A stretch of 64,000 nt of DNA from Raillietiella orientalis (lineage: Eukaryota). The DNA lies in the NCBI GenBank assembly GCA_036172245.1, contig JAYWIR010000009.1:62001-126000 (forward strand). Reading direction: 5' to 3'. The notes under the pieces were generated by a model, which did not search any database, was not told the DNA's origin, and worked only from the letters and a program-made list of their open reading frames with translations. Both the position numbers and the translations under genes were made by a program. This document shows positions 1-60,492 of the stretch, in pieces (within the stretch, counting starts at the first letter, position 1; every line of letters begins with the position of its first letter).

Positions 1-129
1 ACCAGTGGTCCTTTCTGGACTGTAATCGAAGAAATAATTCCACAACGAATGAACACTGTTTTCTAGTGACTGCTTTTCTAATGACCTTACAATAAATGCC
101 CCGGCGTGACTCACTGGACATAAAACTCG

Positions 130-2300
130 TTGTTAGTAGGTATATTTAGTGCACACTACTATCAAGCCATCTTCATTTTCTGGTGCATCAATTCTGAATA
201 ACCCTCCCTGAAAAATTCCCGTATCGAATGGTACACCTAGCCTCAGTGATCATAGGATAAAAGCTCGAACTCAGAAACGAAAATAAAGCAATACAAGCAA
301 TGTATGAAAAGGTGCATCACTCAAAGAAAGGTGCACGAATGAGTGGAGGAGTTTACGAATGACACAATGAGTGCATCCGACGCAGACAATCCAGACCTGA
401 CTGTGGCAACAGCAAACCATGTCGAAAAAGTAAATCCCCTCGTTGAATGCAACAGACGTACGCTACCACTATTGAAGCAGTCTACATAGTCTACATATTG
501 CACATAATGCGCACCACCATAGAGAACACTGGTGGAGAACCTATGGCACGCGTGCCAGTAGTTCCACGGACGAAAATTTTCGCGGCATGCCATTAAGTAA
601 AAAAAAAAAGTTAATCACAAAACTAATTTGAATCCTATCAGTCGACCAATTTGCTTAGAATTCCAGGACTTCCCCTTGTGGAATCACACGTGTTTGTCAT
701 GCATTTTCGACTGTACAATCGCCAGTGTGCACAAATAAAGTACGGCACTTGTATTATTGTTGTGAATGCGACGACTTTCTGAAGATAAAGTTTTTAGTGA
801 AGGTGTGTATTATTCTTTGATATTTCTTCTTACCGTACTAAATAACATGGATGTTCAACATATAAAACAAAAACTATCGGAATCCAGCAATTTTGACTTC
901 CAAACCAGGTGGACTGCAAATTATGGCATGACCAACAAAGATAATACAGCTGTATGTGTCGTACGTTCAGAAACAGTTGCATGTAGGACGTCGTAAGTAA
1001 ATCGGCATTATAAGAGGAAGGAAGCGTAAATCGCTCCTTGAGATAAGACGAACAGAAAAAATTCATTACTCAGGCAATTGAAAACAGAAACATTCAATTA
1101 AACGCCTTGATAGAGTTTATCGGAAATCGTTCAAATATAACCCCCGCTACTTTTTTCGTTTCAAATGAAATTGCCAAACATGGAAAACCAGAACAGGGAA
1201 AACATCATTCCAAGAATGAAAGATATGCCATTGGCCAGAAACACTTTGAAAGACAGAATATTGGAAATGGCGAAAATACGACGTATAAGCAAAAAATTGA
1301 TATAAAAATCTTCCGCTTGAATTTCTCTTTGCCTTGAAAAAAGTACCAGCGTGGTAAGGATGGCAGCAGGGAACCCTTTGCACGATATGTATTGGCATAG
1401 CAATTTTCCGCTACCTCACGAATGTTTCTTTGCCAAGTTGATATTTCCCTCTCCGGAGAAGCATTGATAAGACTTTTCATCACAATTGATTCGATTCTGT
1501 AAAATGCATAGTGATATGCAACTCTTGTCTTCATGCAGGATTGTCACCCACAAATATTTCCTTACTAATACATCACTAAACATTAGTAAGCTATGGCAAC
1601 CGTATGGCTGTAGAGTCGGGTAGCCGCTATCTCCAGGTATCGGCGGAACGACACAACCGGGAGATGCACTCTTTGAACGGTAATATACGGTTCTACACTG
1701 AGGAAGGGTGGAGTCGTTTAGAAACCGCTCAAGAGTTGCACCACTATGCCTGGGGCACCGAGGCGGTAAAAAACACATAAATGTGAGTGTTCATTTCGTG
1801 CTACTCGCTGTGGTTACCGGTTGCTCCACAATGTAAGTGCAGCAATGGGCTTCTGAGAAGCTTCAGGGTGATGAAATTTGATGGTGGAAGCACTTGCAAG
1901 TTAATACATAATAAAAATGCGTAAATTTCATTTGAAATGGTAAAATAGCAATTCCAACCAGGCTCAACACTGTTTAAGTTCCTTCATGGACACAAAATAA
2001 CCATGGAACCAGATATCCTCTAAGGAATAAGTCTACTGAAATTTTTGCCTCATTTTGTGCTACAGTATCAAATTTTCCATTGTTTTCTTATTCCATACTG
2101 CTTCAAGAGCTCTCTAATGGCACTGTTTACCTGTAAGGCTTGCATTATTCCCTAGAAGAAGGATACCAACAGGGTACTCAATAGAATTCGCAGTTCAGTA
2201 GGATAACTAAGCAACAGCTTTCCAACTTATGATTAGAAGCACAATGCTTAGCAAGAAGGAAATATTGGCTTTACTGCATGGAAATAAATGTGCGCTCAAC
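130..2300 (-). pseudogene. Degenerate wolframin (WFS1)-like multipass membrane protein gene
   Basis: Minus-strand fragments in switching frames echo WFS1 in collinear order: VGKLLL (~VGKHYL), EISTWQRNIREVAENCY (~ETDLERAVRKAALVMY), CFPCSG (~CIPCSE), TTSYMQL/TAVLSLLVMP (~VTSYLSL/TAGLLSLLPSMP), VFVLYVEHPCYL (~LVVLNVSVPCLL), MACRENFR (~MAQLRNFK). GTAAG donors near 830 and 1561. Stops and frameshifts are present. Confidence 0.45.
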
Positions 2301-2794
2301 TTTCAAAGTGCAAAGTATGTCACAAAACACCACGAAGAAAAGATATTAAATCAGCATAGATACAACACATCATGTTCAAAAGGATGCACTTTAAGAGCAA
2401 AAGACTTTGATTTTGCTTCAAATATTCAACAACTGCAGTCTTTCTACCATCATAAGAATCATGAGAATAATTTCAATAATTACCAGCAATCAATTGAAAA
2501 CTTGCAATTTGAAATTTTTTTGTGCAACAATCTTACAGTACACTTGTTTCTTCAATGCATCAAATTCTACTCAAAACTATAGTGCTGCATAAAATGCTGT
2601 ACTGAGATACAATCATGGAAAACTCCGTAGTACTCTCTTGTTTCCAAACTATCCAGAGAGCAGTGGAAACAACAGAATAAGAGCAATGCAATCGTTAAAG
2701 AAATCGTCGAAATCAGAAACCATAGAAGTACTTCAGTGATATCAATTTCAATAAAAAAACGCATTTAATTTTCAAACTGAAGATGTTTAGATGC

Positions 2795-2804
2795 ACACAC
2801 AAAG
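2795..2804 (+). other. Phenuivirus-type segment 5' terminus (ACACAAAG, preceded by an extra AC)
   Basis: ACACAAAG at 2797-2804 begins 53 nt upstream of the nucleocapsid ATG (2850) and matches the conserved Phenuiviridae terminal octamer. Confidence 0.65.
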
Positions 2805-2849
2805 ATCTCTCAGTTTTGAAATATTGCAGAGACTGAATTATTAAGAAAA

Positions 2850-3584
2850 ATGGACAAATTGAACAAGGAGGAAGTAGAAAAATTAGTCAAAGAAATTCAA
2901 TCAACTTTGGTGTTTAATGATGAAATGGTAACTTCCATCAGACAAAATATAAATGATTTTGTTTATGAAAGTTTTGAGCCTAAAAGAATGGCTGTTATGA
3001 TATGGCACACGATTCAGGGGTATGCTCTTAAATCTAAAAAAGAGGATATCTTGATAATGATTATGTTAGCTTTGGAAAGAGGGAATAATTTAGACAGCAT
3101 GAGAGAAAAGATTAGTGAGCTGGTCTTGATGCTCTTTTTAAAACATACAAGTTCGTGTCTAACCCCGGTAAGAGCAAGGATGCAACAATGCTTTCAAGAG
3201 TGTCATTGTTCTTTCCTTGGTTGACTTGTGAGATGTGTTCTCACATATTATCACATACAGTTTCTCCCTCTCTTAGACACCTTAATATCTGCCATTTACC
3301 CTAGGCAAATGATGACAAGTGCATTTGCAAATAGGATACCCATAGAAACTGACAATGCAGAAAAGAGCACTGGAATTGATAAGATAAGATCTGCTTATCT
3401 TTTACATCAGTTTGAATTTACCAAGACAGTTTCAAAGATATCCCCAAATACAACCAACAGAAATGTAATCTCTAAAATTCGGGTTTATACAGATGCAGGT
3501 CAAGCAAATAATTACATTCACAATGCTGACGGAGTACACTATATGATTAAGTGGGGTATGTTTGACAAAAATTGGACATTCTGA
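2850..3584 (+). pseudogene. N: Endogenous viral element: Phlebovirus/Tenuivirus-family nucleocapsid (N) protein
   Basis: FVYESFEPKRM (~FAYQGFDARRV) and MIMLALERGNN (~MIVLALTRGNK). After a frameshift at ~3118: DALFKTYKFVSNPGKSKDATMLSRVSLFFPWLTC (~[33 protein letters not shown]). After a compensating shift at ~3272: YPRQMMTSAFA (~YPRHMMHPSFA), AYLLHQFEFTKTVS and KWGMFDKN. Intronless, ~245 codons. Confidence 0.9.
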
Positions 3585-3872
3585 ACAAAGATGACTAGGT
3601 TTTCATGCCTTCTTGTATTCTGATTGTTTAGAGTGATAAAAAACAATCGATGAAAGTTCTAGAAAATAAAACCATGCCACATCATTACCAATTCCAAATT
3701 CGAATTTCTAAGCACTTTCTTTGCCTTGGCATCTTCAAAACAGGCAGTCACTCTTAATAATAATAAACCTGCTGCATTATAGATCAACCTAACATGAATA
3801 TCAGAATGTCAAAAGTAAATTACAAGTACCAGAATTTAAATTTTCACATTTTTTCACAAAAAACATTAGTAC

Positions 3873-4417
3873 TTAGTCTGTACAGAGTTCATTGAGCATG
3901 TCAGTTTCCCATTGTGTTACCCTCTCATCTTTTAGCTTTTACCCTTTTAAGACTCTTCCTAACTGTACTTCCACCTCAGGAGGAACTGAGTCTCCAGATT
4001 TAAAGAGAATTTCTCACTTCCATAAATCCTCGTGTAATTCAATCTTAATCGTTTTGAGATTTTACTTTTTTTTATATAGATCTTATCAAAATGCACTGAA
4101 GCAATTCTGGGGCTATCAGGCAGAAAACCAGCAACCTATCAAAGTATACAAAAATTCTGTGTTGAATAGTGTTTTGCATAGATTTTTGTAACCATAATCC
4201 AGATATAGAAGGGTACGGGTTGACAAAATCCATGGGAAAAAAATTGAATAAAACTCCTAAAACGACACAACCCATCTTAGGAGCGCATTCTTTCAGGAGA
4301 TACTAATCAAAAGCACTAAATCAAGTAATTCCCTTGTAACCAATTATGCAATAAATTAGCAACATTAACATGTATGGTGCACAGGGCACATTTCTTGTTA
4401 TCTACTGTCAATCCCAT
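3873..4417 (-). pseudogene. Decayed ORF convergent on N; candidate ambisense non-structural (NSs-like) gene
   Basis: Protein-like text across frames, from MGLTVDNKKCALCTIH to ...EILFKSGDSVPPEVEVQLGRVLKG*KLKDERVTQWETDMLNELCTD*. Separated from the N stop by an AT-rich ~290 nt spacer. No recognisable motif. Confidence 0.3.
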
Positions 4418-5599
4418 TGATTCATTTTAAAATACGGAATATCATGAAATTACGTGCCCTTTTCACAAACCTGCGAGTCTTCATCAGATTCTTCCACTGC
4501 CACACTCATAAGGGTTTTTTTTTTTTCCTCTCTCCCGTTCTGACTTGCGAATACGCATGCTTGAAGTTTCTCACTAATCGAAAGGATGCACAGCCCATAT
4601 TGTGCAATTACAATATCAGACACTCGCAGAGCACTAATGTCACTAAGTGACCCAATCCCACAAAATCGATTTGCTACTAAACGGTGGGAAACACCCAATT
4701 TACACGGCATATGGACGATGGTATACTTCCAAAGGAGAAATCCGAAGCACTCTGAAACGCGCCTTCGCGTGGCAAAAATCGTTTTATCCGCTCTCTCAAA
4801 AAAAATGGCGAACTCTCACTCGAGCACGCAGGATTGCCAACAATGGTTAATGGAATCCCGCTAGATGCCTTCCAAAATCGACCATTTTTCAAGAAAAGGG
4901 ATTCCTGATTTCAACACCTAGGAATTTATTATTACTATTATGGAATCATTTAATGTCACTCAATCTAGAATCCCACAGTACAAACATGAAATGCAAGCTG
5001 ACAATTAATTGCTGATCACGTGAGATTTCTGTTATTCAGCTACTGCTATTTTTTCACGTGTTCGTTACGTTTGTAACGAGACCGCCGCACTGCCGGTTTT
5101 ATTACCTATACTTTAAAGACCACGTTAGAATAGTCGGTGAATTGTAATCAAATACTCAAACCAGTAGCTGCTGCACTTCAGCAATCGCAATTTCAATATC
5201 GAAATATTTGAACGATGAGAAACTCGTTTTCCTCGACAATCTTCGTCAATGATGCAATCATTGAATAATGTATCCAGATCCTCCAAGACTGGAACAGGAG
5301 TGAACAAAATATCCGAAATTTTATTGAAGACTATTTACAATATCCGTAATTGAAAATTCTCTTTGCAGTCACGAATAACTCGTAAACTTCGTCAGCCGGC
5401 GATTTCAAAACCTCTAAGATCCCTTCTTTGGTGAGAATGAATTCTTCGAATTTTTGCAGAATGAAATAGGAGCCACTGTTTCTGATGGATTCGGGAATTT
5501 TTCTTATTAGAATGCTTTCTTCTTCTTGCTCGATAGAATAAAAAGAAACTCAACTTCCCAATTTGAAGATTGCTCCGGCTAGTGCATCGGGGATGATTA

Positions 5600-8500
5600 C
5601 GATTACATGTTGCCCTGCTATCTGTTTCTCCTAGAAGCAAAACAGAGTTCTTCTAAAAGCGGAAAGCCTAAAAGGATGGAATTCTTTCCATGGAAAACAT
5701 CGTCTGGATTTTCCCGCCAGCAAGAGGTATGCCTGTGAAACAACGGAAATGCGTTGTGGGGCAGAGCTCCATGGAAGCAAAACACTGGTTTGCAGGATGA
5801 AAGCAAGAATATGAAAGGGAAGAAGCACGCAAAGTGTTCTCAGATTTTCATAATGATGTCATTAATTCTCATTATCTTCATTACTTGCATTCGTGCTGAA
5901 ACATGAAGATGGGAAGTATGGAACTGTTTGCTTCCAGAATTCACAACGCACCTCTGTTCACATTCATTACGTGCTTTCCCATTTGCATTAAACTTCACGT
6001 AATATAATGAGGAGCTCTGTTGCTGTAACTCAGTTACTAGCAAACGAAACTTTCTTCTTTCATGTCTTCATCAATATGGAGGTAGTAATAATGTCTACAC
6101 CCTTTAACCTTCCGTATTAGGATCGCAATTTTCTTCTTTAATTCTATCACACTCATACCCCACCCTGCCGAGCGACATATCGAGCTGGTTGCGAGTGAGA
6201 AATGAGGTCAGAAAACTATTGACGCCAAAAGAGAAAGATGCATGTTTGGCGAGGTTCCTGGCTCCAAAATTTGCATCCGCAACCAGGATTGGCCACCTGA
6301 TAACTAAGACACGAGTGATGCGCTACACTTTCTTTTATGAATGGTGTGCCTTTCTATGGTTACTGTACTACGTTCAGCAGCATTATATGAACTGATAATT
6401 CAAAGAAAGAACTTTATTCTTATATGTACACACAGTCTGCTTGCATATCAAGTTTTTTGTATAATAATTCATAGCATTTGTTTCAAGAAATAATTTCATC
6501 TATTTATGTGTGCCAATTTCCTTTTCTTTCTCAGAAATGTGCTCCTAGCCACAAAATCAATGAAAATGCAGTCTCATGATTGGTTTCTTGATAAGTATAC
6601 AAATATAGATTAACTGGGTAATTTACAGTCATTTCTCTCAATCCACCTTTTCCAGGGTTGGGTTTCTCTGAATAAGAATTTCCGGTGTTTACCGAACGAA
6701 TGTAGAGATGACATCAAACATTACAATTTAAATGCAAACACAAAAATCCTTGATTTTAAATGGCATTCAGCCACAGTACGTTTTCGCCATAAACTGTCTC
6801 CAACGTATCCACCGATTGTCTTTATTAAAAGTTTATAAATTTTGAGGATGTCTCGTATGAGGATTCAAAAGTCAGCGTGAAGTTCGTAGAAAACCTCTCA
6901 CACATTGTTTGAATTTTTCAGGCTTTACTGCTTCCTTGTTAGGAAAGATTGATTTCTCAATCATGAGCATTAGGAAAAAATTGGCAGGATTTAATCACCC
7001 TTTACATCTTCAACAATCTTTTTCTTCAAAAATACGTTGATGATCAGATGGTTCGCTAAGTACTCCAAGAGCCGGTCGCGTGCCTCGTGGCGCACGTGGC
7101 TCTTTAACAGTGTTCCACCCTACCCCCGGAGGGCGCGTGTTATTCTTCAAGATAGAGGGCACACTTTCCCTGGTTTTCCCCCTACGAGTTGCTGGTAATC
7201 AGCATGCACAGGAGCACGTCGTCTTGCACTACCGGCTATCCGAAGATCGCCACAAGCAAGTTGAGGCCACACTTCACTCCATGAGACCGTCATCCAATCC
7301 CTAACGACTGCTGCAAGCATAGTGACAGCACCTCCTGCACAAGTTTCTCCTTAGATCTCATGCAACATCAGAGAGTTGAAAATATTCTGACACAAGGGCG
7401 TGTCTTCTAGCTTACAGTATGCAAGGAGTTGTCCTTTCTTCAGTCACTCCACCGCCATCGAAGAGATTTCGGGAAATCGGCGGTAGGTCGCATAAGCGTC
7501 CACCTTTGCGGTCCAGCTGAACGTTTTCCGCATGCAACATCCTGTAGAAGTTGAATTCAGGAAGCAGGCACCCCTCGCCTTCGTGTAACACGATCTGCAT
7601 CCTCGGACCCACGGCTCGCAACGTCAGACGCACCTTCCGAAGACACACAGACAGACATCTCTCGTACAAAGTACGCAACTTCCGTACACAGAGTGCGACT
7701 GCGCGCAGCTGCTTGCTTCGCGCGAATGTCATACGAGCGGACTTTGAGCGGAGCTGCGCAGGCGCTTAGCGAGGGAGATGGACCCTTTGGAACATGCGCT
7801 TTCTTGATTGAAGCACGAAAAGCGCTAAAGAGCCCTCAATCACCCATTCGAGCTCTATCCCCCGGTCACAGTTGCACACAAGAACGTCTGGTTGCTGTTT
7901 TCAATCGATTTCAATAGCGGCCCGTGTTGTTCGCAGGAGAGCGGGTGAACAACCATCGTTGCATCGTAGAAGTGAACGTCTTGTGCTGAGGAATCGACAG
8001 AAGACGTGTCCTGCATTTCGCACGTCAGGCACCTCCTACCTAAAATCGGAGGCACGTGATCTTAGGGTACGAACAGTCCGCGCGTATGCCGCAGCCACCC
8101 TCTTGCCGCATCCGCTTCAACCGCTGTCGGTTCCGGCAGAAGTGTGCCACGCATAGCTGCCACGAGCAGCTTAGGGACAGCGGCTCGCGCTGCAGCATTT
8201 TCGCCACCCAGAGATCGCAGTTGCAGCACTTTTTCCGGAGAAGAGCTCCGACATCTTGGAGACAGCGACCGCCTCTCAGCCTGCCCGACACATGCCCCTG
8301 GGCACCGGTCGCGGCAGCCTGTGCGGGTGACCATCGGAAACACTTCTGTCGCCACCTTCCTTCAATCTGTGGCATTCCTTTCCTTGTTCAGATTTGTGAC
8401 CTTGCGGTAGCGCGCCACACGATGGACTCGACCTGCTGGCACGGGAGTCAACAGTTCATCTCATTCATCCTTTGCTTTATGAGCCGCCGGCTGAGTTTCG

Positions 8501-16669: not shown

Positions 16670-18120
16670 ATTTTTGCTTACTTTTCATGTTACGATTTTT
16701 AGTTTCCTTTTCTGCATTTTCTTTTCTTTATTTTTTCCATTTCTCTTTTTTATCGCTTTCCATTTTACCCTCTTTTCTAAGCTTTTCGTTTTTTTTTTTT
16801 TCAATTGCATCATTCTCTTTCATTATTTTGTTTTCCTTCGTTTTCCCCCCATCTTGATTTCCCCTATTCTTTGTTTTTCTCTTATTCTTTTCTTTCTTTC
16901 CCATTTTTCACTAATTTGACTTCTTTACCTTTCTTTTTTCCTTTCTCCCTTTTTTCTTCTTCCTTCCCTTTTCCTTTCATTTCTTCTTTTCTCCTTTTTT
17001 AGATTTTCTTCCTACTCTTGTTCTTTCTTCATTTTTACCATTTTAATGTATTTTCTTTTATTTTCTTAATTCCTTCGATATGATTTGTCCATTTCTATTC
17101 ATTTCCTTTTATCTTTTTATTTCAACTTTCTCCTTTTTTTTTTTTTTCCTTTCACTTCCGACTGTTATCTTCTTTCTTTTTGCTGCTCTGTCTTCTTAGT
17201 GTTCTTTTTGTTTTCTCCTTTTTTTGTATCTTTTCGTTTCTTCTTTGCTCCATTCTGCTGCTGATGTTCTTTTTTTTTTTTTCTCCATCTTTTCCTTTTT
17301 TATGTAGTTTTCATCTTCTTTACTTTCTCCTTTCTCCCCTTTGTTCCTTATTTTTGTAGTTTTCGTCCTTTTTTGTTTCTCCGTTCTCCTATAATGTTCC
17401 TTATTTTTGTAGTTTTCATCTTCTTTTGTCTGTCTTGGTTTCTTGTTTTTTGGCTTCCTTGTCCTGGTAGTGTTCTTTTTTTTGTTTTCACGTTTTTTTG
17501 GTCTCTTTTCTCTTTCTTTTTCTTCTCTTTTCTGTGCTAATGTTCTTTATTTTTATAATTTTCTTGTTATTTTCTTTCTCTTGGTTTCTTGTTTTATTTT
17601 CCTGTTCATCTTTTGTTCACCATTTTCTGTTCTGATTTGCTTTTCTGTTTTTTCTCTCATTTCTGTCTTTTGTATCTTCTTTTTCTACCTTTTTATTTTT
17701 CTCTGCTTTCTCTTCTTAGTTAATAGGAAGAGTAATGGCCTTTTTTTTAGTGACCTTCTTGTTCTTGTTTTTTTCTCTCCTTTCTATTCTGTTTTCACAT
17801 CTCTGAGTTCTCTCCTTAGTTTCTTGGTTTTTTTTTTTCTTGGTTTTTCCTCTTTCCTTGCACCTTTTTTCCTTTCCTCTTTTGTCCATTTCTTTGTTCC
17901 GTTTTTGTCCTCCCTTTTTCCTTCCTTTTTTCCTTTTTTCTCTGAGTCTGTTTTTTTTCTGTTTTCCTCTTTTGTTTGTTGTTTTCAATTATGTCGTCCC
18001 TATTGTCTTCTTTTCCTTCCCTTCTTTTCTTTTCTCTCCTTTCCTCCTTTGTTCTTCTTGGGAATGTTTTCTCTTTCCTTTTTGATTCATTTCCTTCCTT
18101 CCTTGCTTTTTTCTTCCTCC
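16670..18120. repeat. ~1.45 kb pyrimidine-rich low-complexity tract (purine-rich, K/E/R-coding on minus strand)
   Basis: Almost entirely T/C on the + strand. Internal imperfect repeats TTATTTTTGTAGTTTTC(A/G)TC at ~17300, ~17348 and ~17401. Confidence 0.9.
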
Positions 18121-28268: not shown

Positions 28269-29339
28269 CTCGAATCCACACGGCAGTGTGGATTCGAAAT
28301 GGCTGCACCCTTCAGACAGTGAAGAGAACAAAAAAAGAGCGAACCAACATCCTCCACTCCGGCTAAGATGCAGAAAGGAGGCGCCTAGAAACACATTTCC
28401 ATCTTTGTGATTTTCATTTTGGAAAATAATTCCCCATTTTTCCATTTACTTTTCCATAATACAAATTCCCAAAATAAATCGAAACTTATTCTGTTCAATT
28501 TTTTGAGGTTTCTGGAACGAATTCAATACGGAGTCGTAATTTAACAGAAATTCGATTCCTTCGTCCACAGATCAATTACACAAGGATGTAATTGCAACTT
28601 GAAAGGAATCGTTGGTAAAAGGGGGTGCAAAATGCCAAATAAAGTGCACAAACTGCATGATAAAGCTAAAGCTGAGCAAAATATTTATATTTTGCAAAAC
28701 ATTTAATCTGAGCAGCAGAGGAAATTTTGTACAGTCACAGCTGATGCAGATTTTACAGCAATGGGTTATGGAGTTATCTTGTAATCATTTTGTGTGACTT
28801 GTTTGCCAGCAAAATTGCAATTGGTGTATCAGCATCAAGTAATTGCCTGTTTAAAAGTAATGAGTCAAATGAAGTGGGAGGAATTGAATTTTGAACGGAC
28901 CTATTGCAATCCTATACAACACGTGATTACAAGATAATTTCGATGTTTTTATCAAAATCTCAGCATCACGGAGATTGAAAAGATGAATTGAAGAAATGAA
29001 TAAAGAAATGATTTCAAATCAACCAACTGAAGAGGCTGCAAGTCTTCAACCTTAATAAGAAATATTAGGTGATCATCGTGAACGAAAATCTAATGTTTTC
29101 AAAAAATCACTTGATGACGTCGGAAAAGTATCAACAAAAATTGAAACGTCAGCAAACTCAGGCAGTGTTCTTACTGATAGTGCAGGTGTATTTGATGACT
29201 GAGATCAAATCACTTGTATTTTTCAAAGTGGTGACCTTACTAATCTGGACGCTCTTCCATCAACGGGGGATATGCGTTTCGCATTAAAGTTCGCTTTTGA
29301 TCGTGCTGGGAAAAAAGCTGATCTTTCAGGGATTTTTTC

Positions 29340-30464
29340 CAGTATGAATTCATCAGGTGTTAAAGGATTCGAGATAGATGAGCAGTCCTCCGGTAGTGTT
29401 GGTGGTCCAGGTAGTTTAGCTATGCACCACGAGTAGCTAGTTTTGGTTCAAATATTGCTGAAATGTCTGGCCGTGGTTTTGGCCAAACTGGAGGAACAGT
29501 TGGCAAATGAGAAAGCTTTGAAGGTTTCCAAGTGGAAATTATTTTTCAAGCGTTTCAACGTGTTCTTCATAGAGTGAATGTTTCAATTAGGGCTCCATCA
29601 AGCAGTATTGTTCCAGTAAAGAAAAAGGTTTATGCCCTAAGAAGTGCTACTGCAACTGTGAACCCAATTCCATGAATTGCTGCAAGCATCCTGTGTAAGA
29701 AAATTGCCAGTGTAGTTAAGTCCAGGTGGGTAGTGAAGGAATTGTTTTCGATGCTCAGTGTGGAATGGTGCATTTACGAAATCAGTCTCTGAAGCAAAGC
29801 AACTAGATTACGTTATGCTTGGAATTGCAAAACATTTATATAAAAAAATTACAGCTCAAATTACTAATATGGATCAACCATTGGGTGGGGCAATTGGTAG
29901 CGCAATCGAAATCCAGGAAGTTGTGAAAACTTTGCAGAGGAGTGGATCTGAGGATTCCCATAGTATTGTGTGTGAATCAGCAGCACCAAGTTTGTGTTAG
30001 GGTGAAAAATAGAATGATTTGGATGAAGCATTTCAAGCATCTGAAGCTGGATGGAAAACAAAAGAACCACTAGAATATTTAATGGAGTTCCTTAAAGAAC
30101 AGGTTGGCGATTTATCTTTGATAGATCCTATGGATAATCTTGATTTCATGTTAAATACCAAAAAGAGAATTGAACTTCAAGGTAAAACAGCAGGTAATGT
30201 CGAAATAGTTGATGCGAGTGAAATTGGATTGTTAGCAGTTCGTTTATTGCTAACAGAAATACAAAAGAAGAGGTAATTGATGAGATGGCAGGAATCTAGC
30301 TAAATGGAAAAAATGGTGGAAAAGTTGAAGCCGGTGAAGTACTTATGGCATTATATGCCACTGGTTATAGAAGTGAACCACTTTATGAATGGACTGAAAA
30401 AACCTTCCAGATTTTATCAAATCCACCAAAACCTGTGAAATTACTATATGCAATAGTTCAATAA
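29340..30464 (+). pseudogene. pdp: Pyrimidine-nucleoside/thymidine phosphorylase pseudogene, intronless, lacking the normal N-terminus
   Basis: IDEQSSGSVG (~VDKHSTGGVG), MSGRGFGQTGGTVGK*ES, KKVYALRSATATV..IAASILCKKIA, GAFTK, ITNMDQPLGGAIGSAIEI, IDEMAGI.L..GGKVEAGE. Ends LLYAIVQ* at 30464. Confidence 0.93.
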
Positions 30465-31639: not shown

Positions 31640-34600
31640 TCCTCACTTGGAAGCCATCTTTTCCAATGGACGGACTTCGTCTGTGGTTGTGCACAGCACT
31701 TTTCTTCAGCACGCAGCGCACTTCCTGCGAGGAAAGGGCAATGTTTTACGGAAAGATGGGGGAATGGAAGGGATCGCAGATCGCCGGAAGGGGTTCTCTG
31801 CATCCGACTTTGGATGCGGGCAAGTGCCGGTCGTAATGCTAATGCTGTGCATCAAATTTTCCAATTTCTCTTCTTTCCTTTGTGGAGCTTCAGGAAACGC
31901 GTTTTCCTTGCCTTCGGGTGGACAAGTCACGCCCACTTCGATCCACTTTCCTTGTTTTTCAAAGATGAGATTTGGCTTTAACCGAGAGTCCACTCCAGGC
32001 TCCCTTTGGTCCGCTGATACGAGCTTGCATCCTCCTACCTTTGTGGCGGCTGCTTGCAGTCTCAGCACGATCGCATCATGTCGGGAGATGTGGTAAATGC
32101 TTGACGCAACGATTTCATATGTGTGGTAATGTCTCTTTCCGACAGTTGGATCTTCAGCACAGGCGATCGGGTGGCAATTTTCTTGCTGCTCCTCTAATTG
32201 GCACGACGTTTAGCATTGGCGGAGTGGATGAAGCGATAATCCGCGAATCGAATGCGGTCACCTGAAGTGAGGAAGTGGATGGAATCCATGTGTGATCCAA
32301 CGTAGTTGATGGCTTTCCCTTGGTCCCGATGATTTTTTATTACGGAATGCCACATCTTTTCTCGTTGGACTGTTCGGAAGTTGGCCGCGAATTTCTTCCT
32401 AACCGTTGTATCTAACGCCATTCCAGGAATTTGCACTTTCGGTCCACTATCTTCGAAATCTTCTGTGGCCTTGGTGAGCTTGGGAGCTTGCCTGGCAGTA
32501 GTCCAGAAGCTCTTGATGTCTGCGCTGCTTCTTTCAAACTTCCCGTTGCATCCTCCTGAAAGGAATCGACCGGCTTCTTCGTCTGTGGGTGGTTGAAGTA
32601 TTTTCTTCGCCACCGCTTCACGCAAAGATTCTCCGGCGAGACTTCTTACAATTTTGTGTGGCGATGTTCAAAGCTTGAAACAACAAGCCACGATGAAGGT
32701 GTCGGATAGGCTCAAGAGCCTAAGGCAAGCTTTTTTCCTGTCACCGTAAATGTGTTCGTTTGCGGCAGTCGGAGGAAGGAGAAGTATTTCCTTGACTAGC
32801 AGTCTTATCTTGATGTCTGGATATTTCCGATCCGATTCGGTCCATCCCTAGCCTCCCGAAGTGGATGAGGCTAGGGAAGAAAAATACTCTAAGCGCATCC
32901 AACTTCTGCCACGGTGACAGTTCGGATGATAAAAAAATTTCTGCTTTTGTAAGGATGTCTTCTTTGGTTGTTTTCTTGTTGAAGATCTCGATTCCGAATG
33001 GCTTTCCACGGAACTTGTAGGCTTCCGGAGGTTCCGTGTTCTCAATGAGGCCCTTTTTGAGCTCAATCTCCATGTGTTTCAAGCCTTTTGGCGTTTTCCT
33101 TCCATAGAATGGTGTTACGCACTTTGTGGGGTTGATGGTGAGTCCGATTCTTTCTGATATTGATTCCATTTGACATATTCGCTTTTTCAATTCTTCTTCG
33201 GTGTCCGCAAAGATCACCAGGTCATCTACGGAGGCAAGTACGCTGTCTTCCCCGTAAGATTCTTCGAATGTTCTAATTACCGGCTCTAAGGACCATATGA
33301 AGACAAAGGAGCTCAGCGGGCATCCTTGCTTGACTCCTCTTCGTAGTTTTCGTAGTCTTGTGACCCCAGACTCCACTTGGATCAATGTCGTGCTGTCTTC
33401 ATATAGGTCTTGGCTGAGCGTAACGAACTGCTCACCTACTCCTGTTTCCCTAAGAGTTCTTAGCAGAAACTTGCGGGAGGTGTTTCCAAATGCGTTTATG
33501 AGATCAATGAAGACTTGTTTCAAGCTTTTGCGACATTTCGCGTGATCCAAACGTGTCTGTAGGATGAGGTTTTAATCAAGCACTCCATCTCCTTTCTGCT
33601 GAGGGCTCATAATTCATGGGTTATAAGGCATTCCTTAATTCCTGTAAGAAGGCATTTCGCGTACACTCCATAGATACTGTTGCCAATCGAGATCCATCAC
33701 CAATCTGCCATTTCCTGAAGTGCATTCCCTGGTTTCGGCAGCAGAATGGTTTTCGTACACTTCCAGGAGGGTATGTTTACTTCGTTCTTAATGGAATGTT
33801 GAATATGAGGGTAATCACTTCGCTGTTGGGATCCACTTTTCTCCATCCTGTGCATGTGAATCCATCCGTTTCTGGGCTGGAGTTTAGCTTTCTTCAGGAG
33901 ATTGGCCACCTCCTTAGTGGAGAAGAGAGTCATATTCTTAGGAGAGATCACTTGTTTTCTTCCTAATAGTGTTTACCATCAGTTTTCCATTTGCTGTTTG
34001 GGGAATTTCTAGTTCCTGATGAAAGCAGTGCTCTACTTTTTGATTGTCGAGTGAGCACATCGTGTTTTTGTATCCTATTATCGTTCTTATTGAGCTCCTT
34101 CTATTCATGTTGTATAATTTTTGAATTGCTTTTTTATTTAGGAGGTTTGTCACGAATTTCCTCTTCAACGGTTTCTGTTCTTTCACTTTTAGGATGGTTT
34201 TTACTTTGGATATCAGATTTTCGTATGACTCTTCAAAGTCATTCCTGCATGTGTTCTCCGATTGGTGCATGGTTGGAAAATGCTCTTTTTCTATTGGTGG
34301 TTTCACACAGGAGTTGGTTTCTTTCTTACCAATTGCGGTCTTAGTCCTTCGTACCTGCGCCATTTTGCGTATTTGATTTTCTACATTGTGTCGTGTTTGT
34401 TATCGAATGTGTACTTCATTTATCGACTTTTCCTCTTCAGTCAACTTGCATTCTTGTTCCACAGGATGATGAATTTCTTTGTAGAGGTATCCTTTTATTT
34501 CGTTATCCGGATCGTTTTGTGTTATCGTTTCGTTATCCTGGTTATCCTGATCTTTGTCTGATGCGAGGATTTCTTGGTGGTTAATTACGCATTGCCATTT

Positions 34601-42799: not shown

Positions 42800-45700
42800 A
42801 TGAAGACGATTGATTTCAAGTCGATTTCAGCAGTTTATCTTATGAAAGATGTTCAGAATGATGTGTTTCTGCAGTTTTTGAAGGTAGCATTGCTTATGTA
42901 TTTTGAATGTTGTTTTTCATTTTAGTTTTGTGATTTCTCTTTGCAACTAGTTTTTGATATAAACATACCTCTGGTTTCTGAGTCAAATGCCAGGATTGTA
43001 TTTAAATGAATTTACAGGTGGTTTTAAAACATTTTTATGGAAACTTAGGGAATTTCTGCACACCTGCTAGGGGCAACGTTAGCTGTGTTGAAAACGTAAT
43101 ATGGAAAATTTTGCGTTACGATATGTTTACCCGTTTGCTCCCCTGTGAAACATCAGCTTGCCTAAGGCTACTTTGTTTAGATGTTCAAATTTAGAGAGCA
43201 GTAGTATCATGATTGTTTGGCCAAGTGGGGTCAAGTTGCATATTTGAATGGAAAACTGCAAGTTATTGAAGACCATATGGATAATTAACATTTATTGCAG
43301 CAAAGTAAAACAGTTGCTTTTGATGTGACTGTTTTTTCAACTGTTTGCATAATAGACATTTCATTTGAAAATAATTGGTATCAAACATCGGTTATTTATG
43401 ATTTTGCTCCAATAAACGGTTGTGGGATTGGTTAACATATTGTTTTGATGCACTTAGATTGTGGCATAATTTTTCACATTGGAGTTCGTAATTATTATTG
43501 CTATGTAGTATAAGTAGGAATTAGAATATTGCTGTTTTTTGTGCTGGCCAATTGGGATTTGGTAAACTGATGATACTGAGGATGGAGATCAGAGAGTCAG
43601 AGATACGGCTTACTTGGTTGTGAAAAAGCAAAGTATTGTAAATTCTATATCTCAAGTGGCGTTTTCGAGTTCACTGAAGACTTGGGGGATGGCTGAGTCA
43701 AGGTGAAGATTGCGTTAGGTTGTATCCTAACAACACAACTTTCGAAAACAAATATCTTGTTGTATAATTAGAAAATGTCAGACAGTCTTAGACATTATGT
43801 TAACTTATACTTGAGGAATTTAACTTATACTTTGAAAGAATTGTTTAAATAAAATCATGATTTCAGATCCATGAATGTTTAAAGCTCATACTTCTTTGTG
43901 ACAAGTCCATTTTATTTGGTTTTAGGTTTGCAGGACATTTGAGTAAAGGACTCACTTTTTTGTATTCTTTGTTCTCTTTTTAATATTTTTTCCGTCTTAC
44001 ACAAATTGTTGAATCCTTGTTTCCATTTTTCTTTTCAGTCTTTTTTTTAATCTATTCTCTCTATTTAGTTCTATTAAGTAATTGACATGCTTCTGTATAT
44101 TCAGAATGTCAAATATTTCTTTGCAATTTAAATTCACATCCAATTTTTCCAGACGTTGCCTGTGCAGATAAAGGTGTTGAAAGATGTGGAAGACATTTCA
44201 AAAGCATGTCTTAGTCACAGTATTTGCTTAACAGATGATTTTTTTTCGGAAGAATTTCAGTATTTGAAGATGAAGCAAGAAAGGTTTGTCTTGGGTCTTT
44301 TTGCATTTTTTGTTCTATAAAAAGTTTATATAAAAAGTGTAATCTAGCATTTACATAAAGACTTAAAAAGATGTAGAAACTTATGCCCTCAAGATGTAAA
44401 CTACAATTTTGTTTTTTATGTGAAAAATTCTATGAGTCATTTACTTAATGGGATTTACAAAATTTCGCTCTCTTGAACAATTCCAGTTTGAAATCGTTTT
44501 ATCATTTTTCAGCTTTGTCATAATGAGTTGCATACACTTTGGAGCACTTGCTGAAGCTTCCACTCAGGAAACTGATGACTTGTTTTTCCCTCTGCACCAT
44601 AAACCAAAAGCTGTTTATAGGAATATACTTGAAGGTATAAAGGTTGCATTTACAGGATTTTCTGATGTGCAAGCTGTGGTGAGCCTTGAATGACATGAAT
44701 TGTACTTGTTCATTATACATTACATCAGAATTCTCTGGGCCGACTTGTTCAGTACTTGGGTGGGAAACTCTCACAAGAAATGGTTTCTAGTGTGACACAT
44801 TTAGTAGCAGCTAAAGTAGTCACTGGGAAAGCAAGATATGCATTTTTATTCAGGTATGCTACCCTTTTTTAACAAGGATAATCTGCAGTCAAAGCAGGGT
44901 TCCTATAATGACTGATTCCTGGATACAAAAATTGTGGTCTCTGAGAAATGAAGACAATATTGATTTTCTTCGAATTGAAAAGGTTTGTTTCTTTTCTAAT
45001 TATACTTAGATAGTTTGTGAGCTTGATATATATGCCTTTTTACAATGTAAATGGTTGTTTGGTGTTTTGACTTTTAAGTACCCAGATCCAGTAGTGTTCA
45101 AATCACTATAATGAGAAAAGTTTTGAATTTTATGCCAACAATGTGAATATTATGCCTAGTACGTGATACAGATTGTTCTTGATAGAATCTGTTGTTTGTG
45201 ATGTGAACTTATGTAGGCGGGAGGACAACTGTTAAAAATGTAGTAAATTCGTAAACTGCTGCAGTTTGTTTACGAAATGTTGAAATTTCTTCTCATTTCT
45301 TTTTTTTTGATGAAAATTTAGATGCAAATGAAATGTTTTTGCATAAAAAGAATGCAATATGAACAGGAATGAGCATTCCTGTTCGCAATGCTTCTTCCTG
45401 TTCACAATAAGCATTAGTTAAAATACATATCTTGAATTGCCAATATTTAATACAAAGGATTATTTGTTTATTGGTGTTGTTTTTGCCTTTGGTTACAGGG
45501 GGATTTTCACAAGAATATTGTGGCCTTTTTCGGGTTTTTCAGTGTATAGTTACTTTCAAAATCAGCATTTGAAATAATTTTTGGTCAGTAAATAATCCTA
45601 ATTAGATCTTGAATTGCTTAATGATGGTGAGCAATGAATTTTTATAGACATGTATTGTTTATATAAGGAATTCCGTATCAAACCACTGCTGGGAATGCAT

Positions 45701-48120
45701 CTGCATTTTGTGGGATTTTCTGAATCAGAGGAATGTGATGTGAAGCGTAATGTGGCTGCTGTTGGAGCCCATTTTGTTGCTGTTGATGATAAGGAGCTGA
45801 CCTTAGTTGTGGTATCTAAGAATGAAGATGCCAGCATCCATCTTTTGGATGATTGCCCCCCACATGTAGATTGTGTCAGAGAAGAATGGTTCTGGAAGTG
45901 CATTGAAAAAAAGTATTTCGAAGAATGGAATGATTTCATTATTAAGGTGATGGGAGAAATGAGAAAATGCACAACTAATTCAGGTTCCTTAGGGAAATGA
46001 TCGGAAATCTTATGGCAACCGTTTCTCTCGTACGCCTCATAAAATACTTGATCAGTCTGAAATCGATATTCCGTTTACCCCATCTATTCAACTTTCACAA
46101 GAAGTTATAGGTCAGACCACTCCAGCAGCTGTAGCTGGTGAGTCAAAACGTATTTGTTGCATAATGTCTTTGTGCCTTAGATAATCAGCCAATCATTGAA
46201 AACGACAGTAAGCAGTTTGCTGTGTTCAAGGAGTTGCTGGAAACAGAAAGCAACTATGTGTCAGTGCTGTATGTTCTACACAATGTAAGTGTACATAATG
46301 TGATCAAAATGCTGACGTACTATAGAAAATGCGAAGCGAATTGAAAGTTCATGAAGACAACAATGATCCATTACTAAGTAAATTTGAAAATAATTATGTC
46401 TTTGGCGACTTAGAGGCGATTTATAAGGCACATAACAATATGTTGGACCAACTAAAGAAACTTTCCGAGAATTGGGCAACACAGGCACACAACATTGGCA
46501 TCATAATTTGTGATGTGGTGAGTATCATTGAGTATGTACTCTGATTGAATCTCTGGAAATTAGTTTGCTGATAAAGCTCTTAAAGTTGCATACGGGCGTT
46601 TTATACAAAGTTTTGAATCAATTAAAAGTCTCATATCGAAGCTTGATCAGACTAATCCTCGATTCCATGCATTCTTGAAGAGATGTCAATGCTGGGAAGA
46701 GTGCAAAAAGCAAAGTTTAGCAGAATTGTTAATCAGACCTGTCCAGCGATTACCAAGTGTCATATTACTACTTAAAGGTTCAGTGTACTCCAAGATTTGT
46801 TGTTTATAAAGGACTTTTAGACTTGATCAAAAAAACTGGAAATTCTCAGCCAGGATGCGGAAATCTGCAAAAGGCACTGCATTCTCTTCAAGTATTTTTG
46901 CAATGGATTAATGATGATAAACGACAGTTTGATGTGCAAGTTGATACATTAAGTATAGTTCATGAAGTTAAAGATGTTCCGGTAAGGCATTATCCTTGCA
47001 GTGAGCTGGAATGTTTTTCATTTTTTAGGTGAACATGACATCTTATCAGACACGATGTTTCATAAGCCGGTGTGAAGTGATTGATATTGAGGCAACGTTA
47101 AGTCGTAAAGATTTGGGGTTATTTTTGTTTACAGATATATTGATGGTGAGCACTGGCCTGATTACTTCTGGTTAGTTGGCTGAATTCCAGTGCAGATCGT
47201 TAAAAAACGTCATGTGCATTTTGTGACTTACCCTGTAAATAGCCCATCAGCAAGCAGCCTTCATTCTCAGCATAAGAAAGGCTGGTTGGGTTTAAGTAAA
47301 AGCACAAGGGAAAAACCCTACAAATTCCTTGGTATTATAGATTTGAAAAATATAGATCAGATTGCAGAACTTGTTGGGAACCCCAGAGAATCCGCCGAGG
47401 ATTTCTCAGAGAAAGAAAATGGTGAGTTCGAGCATGCACAAAGCTTTAATTTCAGATGTTTCAGAATCCACTGATACGTTCGCTATTGAAGTGAAGAATG
47501 ATAGCTTTAAAAAATGGTACGCCTTCAAGATTTTACCGTCGCCGGGTTCCGTCAAGGAGAAAAATTTCTTTCTGGAGATGCTTAAGCAGCAGATAGTATT
47601 GTATCAACCTAAAGCAGCAGTAAGTTTATGTAGTGTTCAGTTATGCAAACCTGAGTTTATTAAATAGTGTTTCACATGTGATATCAGCAGCTTGAATTTG
47701 AACCTTCGGAGTGATGCCTCTTTGTTCATGGGCCTATTGTAGGTTGTTTTTTACTCATTATTTTTATGCTACGTATATATGTAGCTCACGAACTCGAAAA
47801 CTAGGTCGGAACCCTAGTTTGAGGAGTTCAGCTGGGAGTTCACTCGAGCAGCTCCACATTGCTTCACTGAATTCGACCATTTCGCAAAGCGTGGATTGCT
47901 TGAACGTAATTATAGAAAGATTCCGGGAATCACCAAGTGATTCAGTAAATTTCTGTGTTCATTTCAGACGAGCATTTCCGGTTGTGGATCAGTTGCATTG
48001 GTCCCAAGTACTCCAAAAACGCTATGCAAGCTGATATCGTCTAATCGGAAATCGTTTTTGAAAAAATTGGAAACCCTGGGGCTACTGCAAGAGACAGCCC
48101 CGTTTCCCAGAATTCAGTAA
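42800..48120 (+). CDS. ECT2: ECT2/Pebble-like RhoGEF (tandem BRCT + DH + PH), multi-exon
   Basis: BRCT exons VAFTGF, LVQYLGGK..VTHLVA, IMTDSWIQKLW, EFRIKPL..FVGFS..VREEWFW. DH motifs FKELLETESNYV, RFHAFLK..SLAELLIRPVQRLPSVILLLK, INDDKR. PH motif LFLFTDILM. Canonical GT-AG introns. Putative first exon 42800-42883 (less certain); last exon 47968-48120. Confidence 0.92.
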
Positions 48121-58975: not shown

Positions 58976-60492
58976 ATGTCTACACTGATGAATGATTTGA
59001 ATGTGTCCCTAATCACAAAGCTTCAGGGTCATGAGGCAGCAATTACTTCCATTTCCTTTAACCCCATCCTTGGCTTGAAACAGATTGCCACTGCCAGTCA
59101 AGATAAGAGTATCATGCTTTGTAACATTGACAATGTGCGAGCCTATAAATTTTCTGGCCATAAAGATCAGGTTTTGGATGTGTGTTTCTCACCTGGAGGG
59201 AAATTGTTTGCCTCAGCTTCATTAGACAAAACTGTTCGTTTATGGTGCCCAGACTACAAGGTGCTATATCCTTGCTCTAGTGTAGTTACTTGTTTGCCTT
59301 GCTGATTGATGTGATGTTTTTAGAAAGATGTTAGCTCTACAGAGTTCCGGGCTCACAGTGCAGCGGTGCGTTCTGTGTCATTTTCTCCTGATGGACAGAA
59401 GATGATTACATGCTCAGATGACAAAACTGTCAAGGCATGGGTGGTGTGCAAGCAGAAGTTTTTGTTTTCTTTCAATGATCACACCAACTGGGTGCGATGT
59501 GCCAGAATCTCACCAGATGAAAAATTGCTGGCATCAGCTTCAGATGACAAAAGTGTGCGTGTATATGATCTGAATTCACGTGTTGCTCTTGCAAAATTCT
59601 GTGATCTCAAAGCAGCTGTCCTGCATGCAGAGTTCCACCCACACAGTGTATACATAGCAGCTGCATATACCGATGGTACAGTAAAACTATTTGATATGCG
59701 TATGCGCAAGCTTCTTCAGCTGTACGCAGAGCATGAAAAGAAAGTGCAAAGATTAGCTTTCCACCCAAGTGGAAACATTCTATTGTCATGTTCTGATGAT
59801 GCAAAGATTAATGCAATGGACTTACGAGAAGCCACAAAGATCTGCAGCATTCTAGATCACAAGGCTGCTGTGCTTGGATTAGCATTCTCAAAAGATGGAA
59901 ATTATTTTGCTTCAGGAGGTGCAGAGAAACATCTTTTTGTGTTTGAACATAATCTGCATGAATTGCCCTCTGACTGTGTGGATGTACCTCAGGATGCAAG
60001 CTTAAATATCGCCACTACAAAACCTGATGCTAAAGAGAAAAGTACTCAAAATATTGTGAATACTGAGACTCAGAGTAAGTAAGCTCATTTTTATTTTGGA
60101 GGACAAGTTCCAACCATCAGTTTTTTAGCTGCATTTCCTAGTGGTCCTGAAGAATTTGTGCTGCATGAACATGAAACAGATAGTAGCTTCTGTAGTATTG
60201 GTAATGTGAATATGGAATCTGCTGCTCACCACTGTAATCTTCATCCAGTAGTGGATGCTTTAGTTTCTGAGGCAAGGAGGCCCTTTTTTTTCTCTCTATC
60301 TCCCTCGTTTTCCGTTCAACAGCATTTTTGTTTTAGGTGGACATGCTCACACAGACACTTCTCATGCTGGAAAAGAGACTTTCTATTGCAGAATCAAAGT
60401 TACAGGCTATGCAGCAAACATCATTGCCACATAATGAAGGATGCAATCACCACAGCCATAAACAAGTGCCATTGTCACCACATAAAGAATAA
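58976..60492 (+). CDS. POC1: POC1 centriolar WD40 protein with C-terminal Poc1 coiled-coil
   Basis: WD40 repeats (RAYKFSGHKD, FRAHSAAVRSV, FSFNDHTNWVRCARISPD, LFDMRMRKLLQLY, FHPSGN) and Poc1 motif VDMLTQTLLMLEKRLSIAESKL. Exons ~58976-59260, 59324-60074, 60129-60271, 60337-60492. AATAAA at 60491. Confidence 0.93.

Follow-up and report, generated by a model that had tools for sequence, protein, structure and literature searches.

What RNA was copied when a viral gene became fixed in a host chromosome? For viruses that carry one gene per segment, a fossil gene normally cannot tell an mRNA template from an antigenome template. The question is raised here by a decayed nucleoprotein (N) gene in the window, by which we mean the whole 64-kb stretch of DNA analysed, and by the few bases that precede its untranslated region. 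The gene itself is placed as follows.

2850-3584, plus strand: broken phenuivirid nucleoprotein gene (Pfam PF05733, Tenui_N; profile of relatives)

PF05733 was matched in three frame pieces (E 5.5e-6, 6.7e-4 and 9.6e-4) that span positions 2-76, 84-127 and 135-223 of the 224 in the profile; the first piece alone reaches the gathering score (26.6 vs 25). With the breaks written as X, the copy scored 188.6 bits against a profile of 22 relatives (positions 7-239 of 266), and this profile found only one N gene in the window. The copy also matched solved nucleoproteins in the PDB (E 2e-7). The reading frame changes near 3100-3120 and again near 3270-3290, and an early stop at 3582-3584 falls 9 codons past the C-terminal Trp. 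As all 22 aligned relatives have at least 24 residues past the column of that Trp, the end of the gene is also damaged or cut. Candidates for a frame continuing N past the early stop scored 188.1-188.8, compared to a null median of 188.7. There are at least three lesions in 735 nt, showing that small changes have built up in the copy. What was found is therefore one viral gene, decayed, in host chromosomal DNA, as expected of an endogenous viral element (EVE). We also considered, and rejected, an older additional N copy in the left flank: a gappy match there (score 68, the top of 1012 tiles) was lost under stricter scoring, with nhmmer and with the protein profile.

The host origin of the window is clear from its other contents, which are those of animal chromosomal DNA: a BRCT and RhoGEF gene, a WD40 gene, a reverse transcriptase and a decayed nucleoside phosphorylase gene. 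The last of these (28900-30400, plus strand) is a nucleoside (thymidine) phosphorylase-like gene, apparently intron-less, with many stops and frame changes and a coding z of 6.1; Pfam places Glycos_transf_3 at about 29424-29729 and PYNP_C at about 30255-30362. At 44700-46800 (plus strand), BRCT, BRCT and RhoGEF pieces lie in different frames with short introns, a layout that we take to be ECT2-like. The WD40 frame (59324-60082, plus strand) is intron-less, has 252 codons and presumably resembles POC1. A broken non-LTR retrotransposon occupies 32194-34399 on the minus strand, with RVT_1 at 32741-33568, and an 87-nt direct repeat lies just upstream of it, at 34555 and 35137. Two repetitive tracts were also seen. 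One is a short high-copy repeat at 519-570, with many loose ends in the public run X1 and a depth of 984 in the first bin, compared to 1-5 elsewhere; the other is a 1.4-kb pyrimidine-rich low-complexity tract at 16700-18120 with a 52-nt tandem unit.

A protein search of 1.84 billion representatives returned 27 matches to the N copy, at 23-34% identity. Of 28 relatives, 21 were looked up and four of these bear names: Aphis citricidus bunyavirus, Hymenopteran phenui-related virus OKIAV306, an Armadillidium vulgare record and a sandfly record. In a tree of N, the copy sits on a long branch in an open fork. No relative was found in viral contigs scanned with the N-terminal piece, with one relative and with an alignment; a 17-nt pattern taken from the terminus described below had three matches in these contigs, all mid-contig and taken as chance. 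A metagenome scan for N yielded two loci from 159 candidates. One of the metagenome contigs (L001, 1-1242) holds a single 319-aa phenui-like nucleoprotein frame with a long low-complexity C-terminal tail. It is distant, has 39 nt before its ATG and carries no terminal octamer, and its ends are probably missing.

Upstream of the ATG, two further features can be assigned to the virus.

2797-2805, plus strand: phenuivirid-type 5' terminus of N-sense RNA, ACACAAAGA (from the sequence; positional chance 0.007-0.011)
2797-2849, plus strand: viral 5' untranslated region, 53 nt, no ATG inside

The sequence-only reading had proposed that a Phenuiviridae terminus is preserved where the 5' end of a segment belongs, and both positional statistics and the family-wide occurrence of this terminus in the literature uphold that proposal. 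The octamer ACACAAAG occupies 2797-2804 on the plus (N-coding) strand, is followed by A at 2805 and starts 53 nt before the ATG at 2850. Octamers of this sequence are no rarity in the window as a whole, where three were seen and 3.04 expected (57 of 100 shuffles reach three), and this is the argument for reading it as a chance match in host DNA or inside an untranslated region. Its position speaks against that reading. When the 150 nt preceding the ATG were shuffled, the octamer arose with a probability of 0.011, the 9-mer ACACAAAGA with 0.007 and the 10-mer ACACACAAAG (2795-2804, plus strand) with 0.0007. The octamer lies within 150 nt upstream of just 8 of the 2290 ATGs in the window, and the 10-mer has one copy in the window, compared to 0.14 expected (14 of 100 shuffles). 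Furthermore, the octamer is on the correct strand and at a plausible distance from the start of N. Given a chance of about 1% at this position before the N ATG, we conclude that the octamer is almost certainly the genuine viral 5' terminus, and a chance match is very unlikely.

The same end is found across the family. The terminus agrees at nine of ten bases with the wenrivirus/uukuvirus decamer ACACAAAGAC, which is the terminal decamer reported for shrimp wenriviruses (PMC8652140). The same terminal motif is reported for tenuiviruses (PMC8148189), for the coguvirus-like watermelon crinkle leaf-associated viruses (PMC5552725) and for a fire-ant virus (10.1101/2020.08.11.245274). A PF05733 nucleoprotein and a terminal ACACAAAG on the N-coding strand together place the source virus in the Phenuiviridae, as far as sequence can assign it. 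Within the family it would be an unclassified phenuivirid, which the N tree places in no genus. Even without a leader, the locus shows that a lineage sharing only about 30% identity with known phenuivirids already used the ACACAAAG promoter end.

The alternation of A and C does not stop at the terminus.

2794-2796, plus strand: register-matched extension C-AC, candidate mark of primer pairing and prime-and-realign (chance 0.013-0.027 for CAC)

An extra AC directly 5' of the octamer had been noted before, and it is indeed read at 2795-2796. The first reading overlooked C2794, which adds a third base to the alternation. The junction is TGC-AC-ACACAAAG, with C2794, A2795 and C2796 ahead of the octamer, so that the alternation extends three bases beyond the terminus. 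An extra dinucleotide between candidate leader and terminus, the pattern needed for a copy of a cap-snatched mRNA, is therefore present as C-AC. In phenuivirus mRNA, realignment is described as adding dinucleotides, more often after short leaders (PMC9836281). The chance of AC before such a motif in the window is 0.047-0.081, and that of CAC is 0.013-0.027.

We compared the junction with 70 sequenced mRNA ends of the rice stripe virus NCP gene (PMC5735111, Supplementary Table 1, counted by hand), of which 40 come from one cap donor (with four duplicates) and 30 from another; the leaders stem from two co-infecting viruses only. The full octamer is present in 56 of the 70 rows. It is directly preceded by AC in 21 of these 56 ends and by CAC in 10 (18%); with duplicates removed, the counts are 19 and 10 of 52 (PMC5735111). 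In row 24 of the table the leader ends in GC, followed by AC and the octamer, which is the junction seen in the window. According to section 6 of the same paper, a C-ending leader followed by a single extra AC results from priming and realigning twice (PMC5735111). Relative to plain chance, this gives likelihood ratios of about 5-8 (AC) and 7-14 (CAC), which need to be discounted, because they rest on a single comparison virus that is perhaps extra-prone to stutter, and because chance is not the sole null. Rice stripe virus may, as the title of one paper suggests, realign more than other phenuivirids do. The C-AC thus looks like an unusual mechanistic mark, to be treated as a candidate only, as three bases alone are no proof of prime-and-realign.

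The extra bases could also have been part of the viral RNA itself, if the source virus had a longer terminal repeat or if the AC arose by realignment during replication. Either origin would be silent on capping. In favour, the lineage is far from every named virus, and replication also starts by prime-and-realign (PMC9836281). However, the termini quoted in the accessible parts of the literature compared have two AC units only, and replicative realignment is described as restoring the exact end (PMC9836281). We therefore give these origins very little weight.

If C-AC is a mark of priming, some of the bases before it may be the primer.

2781-2794, plus strand: candidate remnant of a snatched host leader, 10-14 nt, starting at 2781-2785 (from rice stripe virus leader lengths)

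Leaders are 10-14 nt long in all rows of the rice stripe virus table that have an extra AC (PMC5735111). The stretch 2775-2794, singled out earlier for comparison with host transcript 5' ends, is 20 nt long and exceeds this range. By analogy with these rows, a surviving leader should begin at 2781-2785 and not at 2775. Leader lengths in general are given as 12-14, 12-18, 10-20 and 10-23 nt (PMC11162785, PMC8916216, PMC4174810). Were 10-14 nt of an ancient host transcript preserved intact as a leader (approximately 2781-2794), they would form a complete cap-snatching fossil with the realignment stutter and the terminus, a proposal that we put forward tentatively and regard as somewhat doubtful. 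If true, the sequence itself would directly prove that a bunyavirus EVE was copied from a capped mRNA, the leader would name the host transcript that was robbed of its cap, and prime-and-realign would be shown in a deep, unclassified phenuivirid lineage. It would also offer a general test, to be applied wherever an EVE from a segmented negative-strand virus has retained the 5' end.

How much host sequence could belong to a leader depends on where the insertion begins, for which there are two candidates.

2784-2791 and 3625-3632, plus strand: candidate target-site duplication 1, exact 8-mer (chance level)
2763-2774 and 3834-3846, plus strand: candidate target-site duplication 2, 12 of 13 with one gap (chance level)

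Shuffling of the full duplication search space yields an exact 8-mer 48% of the time (P 0.48), and the chance for duplication 1 falls to 0.018 only when that space is narrowed post hoc. Duplication 2 has P = 0.17 in shuffles, and 8 of 44 comparable tiles of the window score equally high. The two candidates disagree on the leader. Duplication 1 leaves only TGC before the extra AC, in which case there is no intact leader, whereas duplication 2 would leave 20 nt.

These boundaries bear on the main competitor for the origin of the extra bases. Here the terminus would be real and C-AC would come from the integration junction or from later decay, the template being either antigenome RNA or an mRNA on which copying stopped at the terminus. 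The bases could have arisen by microhomology of the host target with the ACAC end, reverse-transcriptase slippage, untemplated additions or later slippage within the repeat. Microhomology at LINE 5' junctions is established. Composition alone would put an AC before such a motif 5-8% of the time, the lesions in N attest to accumulated small changes, and duplication 1 ends three bases before the extra AC, with the chance of 0.018 in the narrowest, after-the-fact space. Set against this, CAC is expected in 1-3% by plain chance, compared to the 18% (10/56) of mRNA ends in the rice stripe virus table, neither duplication candidate rises above chance in the full search space (P 0.48 and 0.17), and microhomology would be expected to overlap bases rather than add them. 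A junctional origin of C-AC deserves serious consideration as the second most likely reading.

Several observations on the flanks should also be noted. Public run X1 contains 0.14 of the words searched, and no RNA run was among those listed; over 500-7500, X1 shows no joint and leaves the bin 2606-2839 uncovered, and is hence silent on the junction. A contig from this run over 3677-3891 (depth 3.8, roughly 92% alike) differs by 18 letters and 3 gaps and crosses the right copy of duplication 2, which suggests a second copy of that flank. Contigs of the run that are 8-18% different, on 3677-3891, 2325-2419, 1979-2028 and 1201-1271, hint at other genomic copies. Hairpins in 3630-3900 were no better than random, and an Rfam search of 1-8000 gave one match, at chance level. 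Two further ideas were not accepted. A 24-nt likeness between 2730-2753 and 5175-5198 (20/24) scored 28, compared to 27 for the next-best unrelated match among 1012 tiles, and was not taken as a boundary; flanks as the two halves of an interrupted host pseudogene found no matches and had coding z of 0.2-0.5.

At the other end of the insertion, a full-length copy of the antigenome would be expected to differ from a copy of an mRNA. The sequence-only reading had seen a conflict between an mRNA template and a putative ambisense gene downstream of N. We found no evidence for such a gene: its coding score is weak, it has no family or relative, and there is no complementary terminus. Since the gene is without evidence, the conflict is unsupported. 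On the minus strand, 3878-4430 has a coding z of 0.5 under a second-order null, compared to 4.9 for the N gene and 6.1 for the host pseudogene, in a model whose amino-acid frequencies are taken from N relatives and which is therefore biased toward N. Under a first-order null the same stretch reaches z 1.0-1.5 (p 0.07-0.16), and it contains an open frame of 76 codons (4072-4302, minus strand). A search of Pfam, NCBIfam, PDB, Atlas and a word index found no family or relative for a second, minus-strand gene. Given how rapidly non-structural proteins diverge, this negative outcome counts for little.

The complementary 3' terminus was not found either. The nearest exact CTTTGTGT on the plus strand lies at 10455. 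Within 3560-6500, the 22 nt of the 5' end pair at best with -13.2 kcal/mol, compared to -34.0 kcal/mol for a perfect panhandle. The best complementary candidate is a one-mismatch 8-mer at 3910-3917, where the pairing stops; such one-mismatch matches number 84 in the window, compared to 70.6 expected. There is no A run longer than 7 nt in 3585-4600. Phenuivirid mRNAs are capped, 3'-truncated and without poly(A) (PMC12641553), and the absence of both the far end and poly(A) is consistent with such an mRNA, and equally with a broken-off copy of the antigenome.

Base composition adds little. A CpG-poor block extends from 1820 to 4430 (observed/expected 0.2-0.5, compared to about 1.0 on either side) and holds the viral copy with about 1 kb of each flank. 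Its end near 4430 is approximately that of the proposed second-gene region. However, it begins about 1 kb upstream of the terminus, at 1820, and is therefore no marker of viral DNA. CpG is depleted alike over the host genes at 43.5 and 58.5 kb.

Together, these data weigh on the possibility that the insert is a full-length copy of an ambisense antigenome, with a minus-strand gene at about 3878-4300, no leader and a junctional AC. The 76-codon frame, the weak first-order signal, the end of the CpG-poor block and the fast divergence of non-structural proteins are what can be said for it. The second-order score, the blank searches, the missing complementary terminus and the start of the CpG-poor block at 1820 count against it, as do the relatives: 11 of the 20 with a size on record are on contigs of at most 1.42 kb, which may be incomplete, and Aphis citricidus bunyavirus is reported to have a single ORF on an S segment of 1163 nt (PMC10926426). 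We consider a full-length ambisense copy highly improbable.

The locus thus presents an N pseudogene, an octamer 53 nt before its ATG and C-AC ahead of that, with no complementary far end or second gene found. We lean, with confidence only a little above even, to the view that the template was a capped N mRNA, that copying ran through its 5' end and that C-AC records primer pairing and realignment. The earlier proposal of a capped-mRNA template with a realignment mark is thus favoured, as the same junction is common among rice stripe virus mRNA ends, but processes at the integration junction may have left the same bases. A snatched host leader would have primed the viral polymerase, its final base or bases pairing with the template end 3'-UGUG. 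Realignment would then have left C-AC before the terminus, and some or all of the 10-14 nt before C-AC may be leader. A host reverse transcriptase, probably of a LINE, would have copied the capped N mRNA to its 5' end, a retrotransposon route that we infer, and the copy would have been fixed in the germ line and then have decayed.

The capped-mRNA template is favoured by the positional probability of the octamer (0.011), by the frequencies of CAC and AC in rice stripe virus ends relative to chance, by the lack of support for an ambisense gene, and by the absence of poly(A) and of a far end, as in phenuivirid mRNA. RNA-virus EVEs generally span single transcripts, and an mRNA origin has been argued from that extent (PMC2987831). 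Against the capped-mRNA template, the signal is three bases long, the missing far end suits a broken-off antigenome copy equally well, duplication 1 would leave no intact leader, and microhomology, reverse-transcriptase slippage or later slippage would yield the same bases. In addition, the best relatives are 23-34% identical, so the terminus of the source virus is taken by analogy. A kept terminus with a primer stutter would settle the template for this locus, and would open the same question to testing in many other genomes.

Bunyavirus and phenui-like EVEs are known in ticks, mosquitoes, water fleas and woodlice (PMC2987831, PMC4231630, PMC6580184). The phenui- and phlebo-like nucleoprotein EVEs of Ixodes scapularis, Armadillidium vulgare and Daphnia resemble the present element in being a single decayed gene with no clear target-site duplication and no poly(A). 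They differ in that the accessible parts of these papers describe coding remnants and mention neither a kept terminus nor a leader (PMC2987831, PMC4231630, PMC6580184). One of the nearest matches to the N copy, at 35% over 166 aa, is the Armadillidium vulgare record P0012, which its source flags as UNVERIFIED_CONTAM. The literature searched, outside of which lay subscription journals and bioRxiv supplements, held no report of an EVE with a kept terminus and a snatched leader.

Among viruses, Aphis citricidus bunyavirus (P0009, 1163 nt) and OKIAV306 (P0019) have monosense S segments and, like the element described here, an N of the Tenui_N family, at only about 27-31% amino-acid identity. The S1 segment of oriental wenrivirus 1 (1164 nt, monosense, with ACACAAAGAC) matches at 9 of 10 terminal bases. 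The mRNA ends of rice stripe tenuivirus are alike in a leader ending in C or A, extra AC units and ACACAAAG (PMC5735111); they are sequenced RNAs with known cap donors, whereas the junction described here survives in a single old copy in DNA. Endogenous bornavirus-like nucleoprotein elements of mammals, which are LINE-made, are likewise retro-copies of a viral nucleoprotein transcript. These carry poly(A) and clear duplications (PMC2987831), whereas phenuivirid mRNA is without poly(A) and begins with host RNA. The element therefore belongs to a known class of viral fossil; should its junction prove to be what it looks like, the junction would bring a new kind of evidence to that class.
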